Below, in pieces: positions 1 to 4,347 of a DNA stretch of 4,347 nt; the first letter of the stretch is position 1; the number at the start of each line of letters is the position of its first letter. The stretch lies in IMG/VR virus record IMGVR_UViG_2675903253_000013. The stretch is one strand, 5' to 3'. Position numbers and translations under genes: made by a program. Source of the DNA: a virus (taxonomy: Duplodnaviria; Heunggongvirae; Uroviricota; Caudoviricetes). Below the pieces are notes generated by a model. The model did not search any database and was not told where the DNA came from. It saw nothing but the letters and a program-made list of their open reading frames with translations.

Positions 1-563
1 TACTCAACGTCAAACGCCCGAATTGAAGCCAAATCATCCAGACCGCTCAGCTCCTCTTTCATTTCACGCTGACGGCGATAAATCTCATCGTTGCGATCGA
101 CCTGCGCCTGCACCATTGCTGCCGCCAGTTCTTCCAGTTCCGGCATCGACAGTTTCACCTGCTGATTATCGGCATCGCTCCACGCCATATGTGTTTGTGC
201 TGTGACAGATTTTGCCAGCATGACTACCGGGGACAGGCGGCCCAGTGAGTTGGGGCCAGCATTCCAGATACGACCGTTCCATTCAAACGTGAACGGCTTC
301 GCCTCCTGTTCTGTGCGCCATGCTTCAATTTCCTGACGTCTGGCCTCTCTGGCCGCTTCCAGCATTTCTGGTGTCACAGTGAATGGGGCTATCTCACCCC
401 ATTTGCCACTTTGCAGTTCCTGCCAGATTCGCTGACCCGTCGGTGCGACATCATCAGCGGTGGCTGTGTAGGGGACTGCCTGGTCCCTGTCGTCAAAAAA
501 AACGTCACAGTCTACTGCGCCACTTTCGGTATAACGGGGATTAATGATTTTTTTAATTTCCAC
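1..563 (-). CDS. Tail fiber assembly protein / tail-fibre chaperone, second copy, different family from the first (DUF4376-like C-terminal motif); partial, 3' end runs off the window start
   Basis: Minus-strand frame is open from 563 to position 1 with no stop (about 187 codons, not in the ORF track because it lacks an ATG and a stop inside the window). Translation begins VEIKKIINPRYTESGAVDCDVFFDDRDQ and contains FTFEWNGRIWNAGPNSLGRL...WSDADNQQVKLSMPELEELAAAMVQAQVDRNDEIYRRQREMKEEL, which matches my recollection of the phage tail assembly chaperone family. It sits immediately downstream of a tail fibre gene (stop TGA 574..576). Proposed start GTG 561..563, preceded by GAGGAA (570..575) at 6-nt spacing; in-frame ATGs at 615..617 and 621..623 are alternatives but would overlap the upstream gene by about 45 nt. 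Confidence 0.6.
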   Translation of the reverse strand, partial: MEIKKIINPRYTESGAVDCDVFFDDRDQAVPYTATADDVAPTGQRIWQELQSGKWGEIAPFTVTPEMLEAAREARRQEIEAWRTEQEAKPFTFEWNGRIWNAGPNSLGRLSPVVMLAKSVTAQTHMAWSDADNQQVKLSMPELEELAAAMVQAQVDRNDEIYRRQREMKEELSGLDDLASIRAFDVE

Positions 564-569
564 GGTGCA

Positions 570-575
570 TTCCTC
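570..575 (-). promoter_or_regulatory. Shine-Dalgarno (GAGGAA) for the second chaperone gene
   Basis: Minus strand reads TGA GGAATGCACC GTG: GAGGAA lies 6 nt upstream of GTG 561..563 and overlaps the TGA stop of the upstream fibre gene, consistent with translational coupling. Confidence 0.4.
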
Positions 576-1763
576 ACGATGTGCGAATAAAAAGCCCGGG
601 CATTGCGCCAGAGACATGAGCATCCGGCACCCCGGACAGGGCGCTATATGACCCCGGTAATGAATGCTCTGAACATCCCGTAATGAAAAATTGTGGGGAT
701 GCTATATACGTTCCGGTGGGAGTACTGGGCACTGAAATCCCCACCGGTCCCAGTCGTGAGCCTCTGTATGACTGCCCCCTGACAAGTCTGATGACTTTAT
801 CACCGTCAGCTTCTCCCTGGTACGCAGCAATAATCAGCCCGCCAATGTCAGGGTCTCCCCATCTGTTGCAGACAGAGCTCGCCACGATTCTGTAAATAAT
901 ATCTTCTGTGGTTATATTTATTTTCACCCAGCCAGTCAGTCTGGATATGGGCCAGTAGCAGTAGCGGGTGTGATAAATGGGGCCGTTAATGCCGTAAAAA
1001 GTAAGGGATTTGGCTCTGTACCTCGGTTCTGTTGTCTCAGGGCGTGCATCAGTCCACCGGATGCTGAGCACCCCTTCAAACCGTGTGTCGGGTATGATGA
1101 TGTCGTAGGGGCCAGCAACGGAATATTCACCTGGCAGCGCATTCCTTACCCAGGCCAGGAAATCACTCTTAGTGTCAAAACGGATAACATCTTCAGGCAG
1201 AAAAGCACACCCAAAGCCGAATGCGCCGGGTATCGCCAGACGGCCTTTTGTCCGGTCGTAAATGTCGCTCTGTGCTTCCATCGTGGCCGCACTTTTCAGC
1301 CCCAGATTATCCCGGGACTTCTGTTGTGCCTTTTCGCCTGCTGCTGCGATTTCAGACAGATGGTTAGCCGTTTTCAGAGTGCCGGTCAGCGCAGCATCAA
1401 TGTCATTTTTGGCCTGCTCTGCTGCGCCTGCGCCACCATTTCCTCAAAGCGTTTGACGACATCCGGTTTCAGGTCGCCCTCATCAGGAGCAATCAGAAAG
1501 TCATTCAGCGTGCCGGGCTTTGAGTCGTCGTATACAGCAATGTCGCCAACACAGTACTCGTCGCGCCAGTCCCGTTTCAGATACACGCAATATTTTCCGA
1601 CCTGTGCCTCAAACGAATATTCACCGTTATTTCCGGTCACTACATCAGCCCTGGTACGCATCACCACTTCTGAGGTGTTTACACGGGATTTCAGAATAAT
1701 CTGGCATCCGGACATGGGGATGCCTGCGCCATCAGTCAGCGCACCTGATATCACTACAGACAT
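574..1763 (-). pseudogene. Side tail fiber protein (lambda Stf-type N-terminal domain plus distal receptor-binding part), disrupted by a 1-nt frameshift
   Basis: ORF 1386..1763 (125 aa, MSVVISGALTDGAGIPMSGCQIILKSR...DSKPGTLNDFL...VKRFEEMVAQAQ) resembles the N-terminal ~110 aa of lambda Stf (MAVKISGVLKDGTGKPVQNCTIQLKA...DSQPGTLNDFL...LELMVEEVA, from memory). It stops at TGA 1386..1388. A second minus-strand frame is open from 1443 down to the TGA at 574..576 and reads GAAEQAKNDIDAALTGTLKTANHLSEIAAAGEKAQQKSRDNLGLKSAATMEAQSDIY..., continuing into the 235-aa ORF 574..1281. Fibre-like sequence therefore continues across the break in a different frame. The two frames co-exist only in 1389..1443. 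Confidence 0.75.
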
Positions 1764-1786: not shown

Positions 1787-2332
1787 TCAGGAAGAACCTT
1801 CCGGAGAGACGGACCATTCAATGGCGTTATATGAGGATTTATCAGTGATGGTGCTGAAATCCATCGCCTGCAGCGATTTCGCGTAAATACGGTACGCTTT
1901 CAGTTTTTCCCGGTCTTCGTCGCTGATTAGCCCCAGCAGCAGGTCTTCTTCCCATTCCCCTGTCCGGGCACTGACCTGAGCCAGAAGGGCATCACGCTCA
2001 TCTTCCGCTTTGAGTCTGTAGTCAAAGACAAATTCATCATTGCGGTAAAACCAGTAACCCGGCGCGGTAATGCGGCGGTTGGCGGTAATATCAGGAACTT
2101 CAATAACACTGGCGTTACGGGGTTCAATGCCTGTCACATCCTTACCGACCCACACCACGCGCCCGTCTCCGGTGTAAACCATTTTTATGGTGTCACTGGC
2201 AAAGTTCTTCTGTTCTTCATACCAGTTTTTGCCGTCTTCCGAAAAAAGCCAGGTGACATCATACTGTTTTGTCAGCTGATATTATTCCGCGGTTTTCGGA
2301 TTACCTGCCGTAATATTTTTTAAATGCAACAT
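1787..2332 (-). pseudogene. Tail fiber assembly protein (P2 gpG / Mu U family) interrupted by an in-frame TAA at codon 17; the largest intact piece is ORF 1787..2182 (131 aa)
   Basis: Minus-strand ATG at 2330..2332 lies 2 nt after the fibre stop (TAA 2335..2337). It reads MLHLKNITAGNPKTAE, then TAA (2282..2284), then continues in the same frame YQLTKQYDVTWLFSEDGKNWYEEQKNFASDTIKMVYTGDGRVVWVGKDV...EVPDITANRR... to stop TGA 1787..1789. This is collinear with the recalled N-terminus of Mu U / P2 G (M.HLKNIKSxNPKTKEQYQLTKNFDV.WLWSEDGKNWYEE), where the stop position is Gln. CAA to TAA is a single transition. Confidence 0.8.
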
Positions 2333-2334
2333 TG

Positions 2335-3375
2335 TTAAATACTCGCTACGTTATACCAGGTGCCATTAATCAGTTTTTGCAGCGGTCGGTAATACACGCC
2401 GTTGACGTTATCCGCTGAGTTACGGCCGGTATCCGATATCGATATCCCTGACAGCCCGTGTCCCGAAGGTGAGCGAAATGTCCACGAAACGGTGTTACTG
2501 CCGGGGGGGTAATACATTTCATAACCATACCGCACATCCTGCACGCCACCATTTCGCTGCTGGTAACGGGCATCAAAGTTTCCGTAGTCTGACGGTGTTA
2601 CCCGTCCTGTAACGTTTACAGCTTTATTACTCTGGATACTGCCACTCTGAAAACGCAACACATGCACGCTATTGGCATAAACATCCAGCAGGCCATCACC
2701 ATTCTGTTTGAATCCGGTGTCATTATCACCAAGAACAATTGAATTCCCCCCCAGGGCGTTCTGAACGCCGATACCCAGCGCACCATTGACCTGCGAACCA
2801 CCGCCAACAGACACTTTATGCGACATGGATATTTCACCCGTCCGCAGATTAATGGTGAACGGGCGCAGGGGACCAATATCGCCATTTTCCCCCTGACCTT
2901 CACTGGTGGGAATAAGGTGCAGGCACTCTTCCGAACGACGAAAAATCAGGCCAAAAGCTTCGTTGAAAATCCTCAGCGCATTAACACCACGGATTTTCAG
3001 CTCTCCGGTCATGGTGTCGCCATCACGCTGAACGGCATTTTTTGCCTTATCCACCGTGGGTTTTAATCCGAGGTTTTCAACAGCCTCATCCCTGTCTTCC
3101 ACATCCGAAAGGTTATTTTTTATCAGCAATGCCTCTTCGTTAATTGCACCGCCCACCAGCAATAATATAGCCTTATATAGCTGGTCGTGTTCTTCTTTAT
3201 TCAGTTCTATCCCGGCCTTCTCAATGACACCACAGATTTCCTCCTGAATGGCATTCCACATGGCACTGTTCAGCCAGGTAGCAAGACGTCCTGTGCGAAG
3301 ATTTCCGTCAGTAAATCCGTTCTTACCCGGACCAAACTTATCTTTTACCGCAGTCAGCGTATCAATCCTGTGCAT
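2335..3375 (-). CDS. Tail fiber protein (Mu S / P2 gpH-like N-terminal attachment region; P2 gpH / lambda Stf-type C-terminal receptor-binding tip)
   Basis: Complete 350-aa ORF 2335..3387. N-terminus MHRIDTLTAVKDKFGPGKNGFTDGN matches the conserved start of Mu-type tail fibres. Middle and C-terminus (NAVQRDGDTMTGEL..., NALGGNSIVLGDNDTGFKQNGDGLLDVYANS..., ending RPLQKLINGTWYNVASI) match recalled P2 gpH / lambda Stf C-terminal motifs (ALGGSSIVLGDNDTGFKQNGDGILDVYANS... RPIQKYINGTWYNVAQV). I place the start at the third in-frame ATG (3373..3375) because GAGGA (3381..3385) sits 5 nt upstream and the product then begins MHRIDT; ATG 3385..3387 (MRMKMHRIDT) is the longest alternative and has no SD. 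Confidence 0.88.
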   Translation of the reverse strand: MHRIDTLTAVKDKFGPGKNGFTDGNLRTGRLATWLNSAMWNAIQEEICGVIEKAGIELNKEEHDQLYKAILLLVGGAINEEALLIKNNLSDVEDRDEAVENLGLKPTVDKAKNAVQRDGDTMTGELKIRGVNALRIFNEAFGLIFRRSEECLHLIPTSEGQGENGDIGPLRPFTINLRTGEISMSHKVSVGGGSQVNGALGIGVQNALGGNSIVLGDNDTGFKQNGDGLLDVYANSVHVLRFQSGSIQSNKAVNVTGRVTPSDYGNFDARYQQRNGGVQDVRYGYEMYYPPGSNTVSWTFRSPSGHGLSGISISDTGRNSADNVNGVYYRPLQKLINGTWYNVASI

Positions 3376-3952
3376 CTTCATCCTCATCTGGATAGGAAAA
3401 TAAAACGACGGTGTGTGACGGACATAATTTATTAATCACGCACTCCGCAACCGTATCCCCCCACGTCCGGATCGGTGTGTTGCAGGCGTCCGTGCATGTC
3501 TGCCACTGAGCACCGGCATCCATCGGCAACGTCACACGCCAGAAATAACGCCAGCGATCTCCCCATTCCGGATCGGGGCTTGCATCCAAGTGCTGGAACT
3601 GTTCGATCGTTACGCCGGTATATCCCAGCGCCTCAAGCTGATCCAGGAAGAACTGCTCATTTATGCCACCAGCCACATTGGCTTTTGCTTCAAGACGTTG
3701 CTGACGCTGGCGTAATGTCTGGGTTCCGACAGGGGAACAGGAATCAGGTAAACCATACAATTCTTCATAACGTTCAATCAGCTCTGTGGACTGACCGGGA
3801 TCGATTTCAATCACCAGTTCATCAGCCCGCTGGTGAACACGCACAAGCGATGGTGCCAGACCGTCAAGTACACCGTCGGTATCTGACCATGCAGGCCCCG
3901 GCGGCATCAGTCCGTACAGCAGCTTTGTATAATCATCCTGTAACGAATCCAT
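3362..3952 (-). CDS. Baseplate/tail protein of the P2 gpI / Mu gp48 family (DUF2313-like)
   Basis: 196-aa ORF. N-terminal LLYGLMPPGPAW...LDGLAPSL...HQRADEL...IDPGQSTELIERYEELYGLPD.C...TQTLRQRQQRLEAKANVAGGINEQFFLDQLEALGY fits the recalled gp48/gpI family pattern. Position is between a J-like baseplate gene and the tail fibre, as in P2 (J-I-H-G) and Mu (47-48-S-U). Strong SD AAGGAG at 3959..3964, 6 nt upstream of the ATG; start overlaps the upstream stop as TAATG. Confidence 0.8.
   Translation of the reverse strand: MDSLQDDYTKLLYGLMPPGPAWSDTDGVLDGLAPSLVRVHQRADELVIEIDPGQSTELIERYEELYGLPDSCSPVGTQTLRQRQQRLEAKANVAGGINEQFFLDQLEALGYTGVTIEQFQHLDASPDPEWGDRWRYFWRVTLPMDAGAQWQTCTDACNTPIRTWGDTVAECVINKLCPSHTVVLFSYPDEDEDAQD
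3381..3385 (-). promoter_or_regulatory. Shine-Dalgarno (GAGGA) for the tail fiber gene
   Basis: Minus strand reads CAG ATG AGG ATG AAG ATG CAC: GAGGA is 5 nt upstream of ATG 3373..3375 and lies inside the 3' end of the upstream gene. Confidence 0.4.
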
Positions 3953-4347
3953 TATTTACTCCTTGCCGGGTCATAAGCCTGCCAGGTGATCTCGCCGAGC
4001 ACCGGAAGCTCGGTCTCCCCCAGGTCAATATCCGATGAAGGGACGATTAACCGGTGGGCCACTTCACCAGCAGACAAACTGATGGCCTCACTGATTCTGG
4101 ACAGATACATACGCCCCTCTGGCACACCATCCCGTAACATCAGTGCATTCAGCTCTGCTTTTATTGCAGTCCTGATCTGCGGTGTGTCTTTCGATAATGC
4201 AATCGTCATCGGGATGACTTTTTCTGTGGCACCGAATACATACAATCCGCTTCCGGCAACAGGTGCCAGAGGAAGGATGTGGTCCCTGACTGCGTTAATC
4301 ACGCTTTCATCCGGGGCCGGGCGTTCCGGATCGTTTGTCGCCACCAT
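3952..4347 (-). CDS. Baseplate J-like protein (P2 gpJ / Mu gp47 family), C-terminal portion; 5' end lies beyond the window end
   Basis: Minus-strand frame is open from the window edge to stop TAA 3952..3954 (131 codons in window, ending ...LPVLGEITWQAYDPARSK). Assignment rests mainly on synteny, with the stop overlapping the start of the gpI/gp48-like gene, and on general resemblance to J-family C-termini. The ATG at the window edge is probably internal. Confidence 0.65.
   Translation of the reverse strand: MVATNDPERPAPDESVINAVRDHILPLAPVAGSGLYVFGATEKVIPMTIALSKDTPQIRTAIKAELNALMLRDGVPEGRMYLSRISEAISLSAGEVAHRLIVPSSDIDLGETELPVLGEITWQAYDPARSK
3959..3964 (-). promoter_or_regulatory. Shine-Dalgarno (AAGGAG) for the gpI/gp48-like gene
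   Basis: Minus strand reads CCCGGCAAGGAGTAAATAATG: AAGGAG, 6-nt spacer, ATG 3950..3952. Confidence 0.5.

Follow-up and report, generated by a model that had tools for sequence, protein, structure and literature searches.

The stretch of DNA analysed here (4,347 nt; hereafter the window) is 100% identical over its full length to Shigella sonnei contig CXFG01000026.1 (L023), whose proteins are recorded as S. sonnei. The genes in the window mark it as the distal tail-fibre end of a prophage resembling phiP27, with a Mu-type baseplate, and all of them lie on the minus strand. The module opens with the 3′ fragment of a baseplate J gene (3952..4347; PF04865), whose junction with an IS1 element is seen in L023 and in loci L037 and L050, followed by an intact YmfQ or Mu gp48-like baseplate protein gene (3362..3952; PF10076, 89.6 bits), identified also from the annotations of relatives L001 and L002. 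Next come a tail fibre gene with an uninterrupted 346-aa ORF (2335..3375) and a tail-fibre assembly chaperone gene (1787..2332), and then a second tail-fibre gene (574..1763; phage_tail_N, 422 aa in relatives) that is frameshifted into pieces at 1386..1763 and 574..1281. A 207-aa DUF4376 tail protein gene (1..623; PF14301), placed with coordinates from L003 and L023, completes the set; the last base of its stop codon falls outside the window. The Pfam families in the window are thus Baseplate_J, Phage_Mu_Gp48, Caudo_TAP, phage_tail_N and DUF4376.

Genes L52–L57 of phage phiP27 follow the same order of baseplate J, gp48-like protein, fibre, chaperone, second fibre and DUF4376, and phiP27 covers 70% of the window at 89.4% identity, with DNA identity of 87–93% over most of the window. 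Phage phiP27 converts to Stx2e production and is complete, whereas the element in S. sonnei has IS1 insertions and a nonsense codon and adjoins smpB or, in the window's own contig, an ipaH gene. Phage phiP27-like prophage regions have been reported in S. sonnei (PMC5447701).

The first tail fibre aligns end to end with phiP27 L54 and is identical to protein Q3YYQ6 of S. sonnei Ss046, an exact protein found on at least 1,000 contigs. Relatives and public annotation start the gene at ATG 3375 (MHRIDTL...), which gives a 14-nt overlap with the end of the YmfQ-like gene; ATG 3381 and ATG 3387 are alternative starts, and the ORF from 3387 is four codons longer. Compared with the L001 fibre, the window fibre is without an internal segment of 56 aa (168 nt; window 2608..2641 versus L001 8684..8885), a difference that reads as in-frame mosaic variation and not damage because phiP27 L54 is also without the segment. 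Contigs of two other isolates show indels at this gene, an extra C after position 2745 in the Logan contig L004 (window 2745/2746) and a missing A at 2466 in L012; either would frameshift the fibre, and they could be further decay or short-read assembly errors.

A nonsense codon inside the tail-fibre chaperone gene

The chaperone gene begins on the minus strand at ATG 2332..2330 and continues for 15 sense codons, leaving a residual 16-codon frame (MLHLKNITAGNPKTAE; 2285..2332) that ends at a premature ochre stop at codon 17 (TAA, 2284..2282). The first 17 codons are ATG TTG CAT TTA AAA AAT ATT ACG GCA GGT AAT CCG AAA ACC GCG GAA TAA, followed by TAT CAG CTG, and the frame past the stop remains open for 164 more codons up to a TGA at 1789..1787, giving 181 codons in total with one internal stop. 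The earlier note had read the gene from sequence alone, and its coordinates, peptide and placement of the stop at codon 17 are all correct on the minus strand. Between the TAA stop of the fibre gene (2335..2337) and the chaperone ATG there are 2 nt, a spacing that makes translational coupling of the chaperone to the fibre probable.

Family assignment of the repaired protein is clear. With Gln restored at position 17, the 181-aa protein scores 87.7 bits against Pfam Caudo_TAP (PF02413; cut-off 22.1 bits), and its residues 1–158 align with chain residues 1–164 of Mu gpU (PDB 5YVQ; E = 8e-39). Mu gpU reads MMHLKNIKSENPKTKEQYQLTK in this region, shares the N-terminal motif NPKT.EQYQLTK and places its Gln17 opposite the window stop, as the earlier note expected in proposing that the stop replaces the Gln of KEQYQLTK. 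Residue-by-residue inspection at codon 17 covered two homologues, Mu gpU and the 182-aa phiP27 L55, and both have Gln. A tblastn search of 50,697 phage records returned 173 with a match to the chaperone, and among the 40 of these listed most align from query residue 1, including Mu U′ (about 50% protein identity), D108, SfMu, P1 and P7 U′ and P2-like gpG. Like Mu gpU, P1 U/U′ and P2 gpG, the gene sits directly downstream of a co-oriented tail fibre gene, an arrangement also found in phiP27 and L001. It has the domain layout of Mu gpU-type chaperones, in which a folded N-terminal domain precedes a conserved C-terminal helical region; for the Mu chaperone, helices of the N-terminal alpha/beta domain contribute to fibre binding and the C-terminal helical domain is the proposed driver of trimerisation (North et al. 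2019, as summarised in PMC9608196). In contrast to the Mu, P1 and P2 genes, the window gene lies outside any invertible G/C segment, and it is followed on the same strand by a second fibre gene and a DUF4376 gene. It also differs from these chaperones in the frame itself, which is cut at codon 17 and does not run uninterrupted through the whole protein. On these comparisons the gene is best described as a Mu gpU-like pseudogene derived from the Mu gpU/P2 gpG chaperone family, a predicted non-functional member equal in length to the intact genes of L001 and L045.

Comparison with relatives defines the origin of the stop as a single nucleotide. In L045 (GCA_012465825.1), where the chaperone lies in an uninterrupted tail module with the same neighbours as in the window, 545 of the 546 nt are identical and the frame is otherwise collinear; the sole difference is nt 49, which is C in L045 and T in the window. 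The closest complete E. coli genome, L001 (FDAARGOS_944), has an annotated 546-nt tail fibre assembly gene (WP_000902847.1) of unchanged length, with 4 mismatches to the window over its 546 positions, and it likewise reads CAA at codon 17. This intact allele (P0001) of E. coli and other Shigella is distinguished from the window by CAA in place of TAA, and CAA is present in eight loci altogether (L001, L043, L044, L045, L046, L048, L049 and L050). The changed base is window position 2284, T on the coding strand here and C in the relatives, with C ancestral. A gene boundary between two separate genes is ruled out: homologues of equal length read through codon 17, and the alignment to Mu and P2 chaperones suggested by the earlier note places the stop inside conserved protein, because family N-termini, including those of Mu gpU, phiP27 L55 and the P1 and P2 chaperones, cover codons 1–16. 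The proposal of a CAA-to-TAA nonsense change therefore holds. We conclude with high confidence that the stop is a genuine nonsense mutation: the change of C to T at window position 2284 (CAA-Gln17 to TAA), a transition, inactivates the chaperone gene of a phiP27-like S. sonnei prophage remnant, and its spread was most likely neutral.

Recurrence of the TAA allele and other lesions of the prophage

The stop is a recurrent, heritable feature of S. sonnei. TAA is present in 32 of 32 S. sonnei-type loci fetched, among them ten Logan contigs that derive from different sequencing runs, roughly a dozen complete chromosomes and the finished Ss046 chromosome (CP000038.1). Truncated ORF calls that depend on the stop, all recorded as S. 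sonnei, occur on at least 1,789 contigs (at least 1,000, plus 773 and 16), and the exact intact chaperone protein is found on 18 contigs. A 61-mer centred on the TAA has no perfect match among 5,426 complete E. coli genomes. The allele is therefore real and inherited, and it appears to be fixed, or nearly so, among sequenced S. sonnei. Used as a marker, the C/T site may tell S. sonnei apart from the searched E. coli genomes and from the other haplotypes fetched. Since the intact allele differs by just one base call, the true base could in principle be C and the gene intact, and the earlier note had allowed that CAA in related genomes might expose the stop as an assembly error. That challenge fails because TAA recurs in 32 independently assembled loci, and sequencing or assembly error is a source of the stop that we reject and consider extremely improbable. 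We also dropped the idea that the same stop is common to S. flexneri, which came from a 162-aa cluster member labelled S. flexneri (P0004); this protein has Met naturally at position 20 and belongs to another allele, and Gln17 is retained in partial chaperone proteins of S. flexneri.

The earlier note pictured an element with an intact fibre and a null or truncated chaperone. Its view of the fibre ORF stands, but the element is not otherwise intact. All S. sonnei loci have baseplate J split at nt 586–595 by a 768-bp IS1 with a target duplication (about 6159..6926 in L037). The junction lies 102 nt beyond window position 4347, the window's own contig opens with the last 62 nt of IS1 (L023 1..62), and the identical junction is present in Ss046, in that contig and in L050. 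A second IS1 sits further upstream between the tape-measure and DNA-circularisation genes, and in the second fibre gene of the window 79 nt are deleted between two copies of the 12-nt direct repeat GCGCAGCAGAGC, which causes the frameshift and leaves a single repeat copy at the junction (1416..1427, minus strand). The tail gene set is accordingly neither complete nor uninterrupted, and in this prophage, defective already, the chaperone stop takes its place alongside the IS1 in baseplate J, the second IS1 and the 79-nt deletion. An open fibre ORF in a short window is no evidence of a working tail when the decisive lesion, the IS1 in baseplate J, lies just outside.

The 79-nt deletion is common only to L023 and L024, and all other fetched loci that span the site keep the 79 nt. 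A chimeric join of two paralogous copies was ruled out as its origin: on both sides the window corresponds to the smpB-adjacent Ss046 copy, diverging only in the last 276 nt. Because both flanks are identical to that copy, the deletion reads as a simple repeat-mediated loss between the two GCGCAGCAGAGC copies. The 276 nt at the window edge (1..276, the DUF4376 3′ end) differ from the smpB-adjacent Ss046 copy at 13 sites and match a cassette in L022 (4528 onward) and L023 (4512 onward) that runs into an ipaH effector gene (587 aa, LRR_TTSS and NEL) and then ybhB-bioABFCD. Such DUF4376-ipaH cassettes are found at several chromosomal sites (L025–L032), and among the positions shown for complete genomes, only those beside smpB hold the fibre-chaperone segment. 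The ipaH-bio context of the window contig could reflect recombination among cassettes or rearrangement, a second copy or a draft mis-join.

Fate of the chaperone product and spread of the allele

Translation from ATG 2330..2332 would end after 16 residues at the TAA, which is followed by T, and no full-length chaperone would be produced. In E. coli, a T directly after TAA makes for strong termination. Three in-frame codons past the stop are used as starts in public records. The CTG at codon 20 (2273..2275) opens a 162-aa "tail fiber assembly protein" on at least 1,000 contigs and is a start known from annotation only. The ATG at codon 51 (2180..2182), the first in-frame ATG after the stop, opens a 131-aa ORF (1787..2182) called on 16 contigs. 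The GTG at codon 59 (2156..2158) opens a 123-aa call on 773 contigs, and a GGAG (2167..2170) lies 8 nt upstream of it (candidate restart region 2156..2170). The earlier note considered the ATG and found it without a Shine–Dalgarno motif, and none is present in its 20 upstream nt (TTGCCAGTGACACCATAAAA). It overlooked the GTG, which is the only candidate restart with a ribosome-binding motif at suitable spacing and, from its sequence context, the more plausible of the two. The lesion itself is present in a public reference genome, and the locus is often annotated as a short protein. Record AAZ89357.1 of Ss046 (UniProt Q3YYQ5; "putative tail fiber assembly protein", 131 aa) is exactly the window ORF 1787..2182 and presents the 3′ remnant as a protein with no pseudogene flag, and other records start at the CTG (162 aa) or the GTG (123 aa). 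All of these 162-, 131- and 123-aa records ought to carry a pseudogene flag.

Restart at GTG59, CTG20 or ATG51 could in principle yield an N-terminally truncated chaperone whose conserved C-terminal domain keeps some function. In favour of this are the well-spaced ribosome-binding motif at GTG59, the 131-aa remainder that still scores 75.1 bits against Caudo_TAP, and a frame past the stop that is open and unchanged relative to L045. However, a recent mutation would leave the frame open in any case, CTG initiates very poorly and ATG51 is without a Shine–Dalgarno motif. Any restart product would miss 19 to 58 residues of the N-terminal domain, the part that in Mu Tfa folds into an alpha/beta structure and supplies helices for fibre binding (North et al. 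2019, as summarised in PMC9608196). A truncated product is unlikely to work because these fibre-binding domain residues are lost, and virions would in any case be unable to assemble with baseplate J split by IS1; we give this explanation only a slim chance. A little less probable again is that GTG59 still serves as the start for the chaperone's C-terminal two-thirds, and that S. sonnei has kept this part, together with the open fibre ORF, for a role unrelated to virion assembly. Surface or LPS binding is one possible role, a property attributed to proteins required for tail fibre assembly in the title of North & Davidson 2021 as cited in PMC9608196. If true, such retention would explain why both frames stay open across thousands of isolates. 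Readthrough or suppression of the stop, which would supply some full-length chaperone, is as improbable as an assembly error: any stop may be read through at a low level, but nothing in the data speaks for it here, and against it stand the strong terminator context, a window sequence in which no recoding signal is apparent on plain reading, and relatives that every one simply encode Gln.

The order of the lesions bears on how the nonsense allele spread. L050 (GCA_900159285.1) differs from the window at 4 of 2,915 nt, and because it shares the IS1 junction yet keeps CAA, the IS1 insertion in baseplate J probably preceded the TAA, an order that follows by parsimony from one CAA haplotype and that recombination could mimic. 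IS1 would first have split baseplate J and left a tail module unable to build a baseplate, and the TAA would then have arisen and spread neutrally. Neutral spread is the most likely course because the tail module was probably already non-functional through IS1. Selection could instead have favoured chaperone inactivation, say because the fibre-chaperone product was costly or harmful, and swept the allele through the population; its presence in every S. sonnei-type locus sampled is a near-fixation also expected under selection, and the fibre ORF is still open. S. sonnei emerged recently, is clonal and is known to accumulate pseudogenes. Neutral fixation in such a pathogen gives the same pattern, the tail module was apparently dead before the mutation, and neighbouring genes carry more strain-specific lesions (the 79-nt deletion and possible fibre frameshifts in other isolates), so that a selected loss is very improbable. 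The nonsense mutation is ordinary prophage pseudogenisation in an insertion-sequence-rich pathogen and shows no departure from it. Because the prophage was apparently dead already, the functional significance of the stop is smaller than the earlier note's reading would imply; the locus plainly illustrates how a prophage decays in a clonal pathogen of recent origin, and outside annotation it has little importance.

The exact intact chaperone with Gln17, together with the start of the second fibre gene (phage_tail_N), is also found on unrelated myovirus backbones, one E217-like (L047 10001–10546) and the others of a different Mu-like type (L048 and L049, 10001–10546). This distribution suggests that the chaperone and the start of the second fibre gene move as a mosaic cassette.
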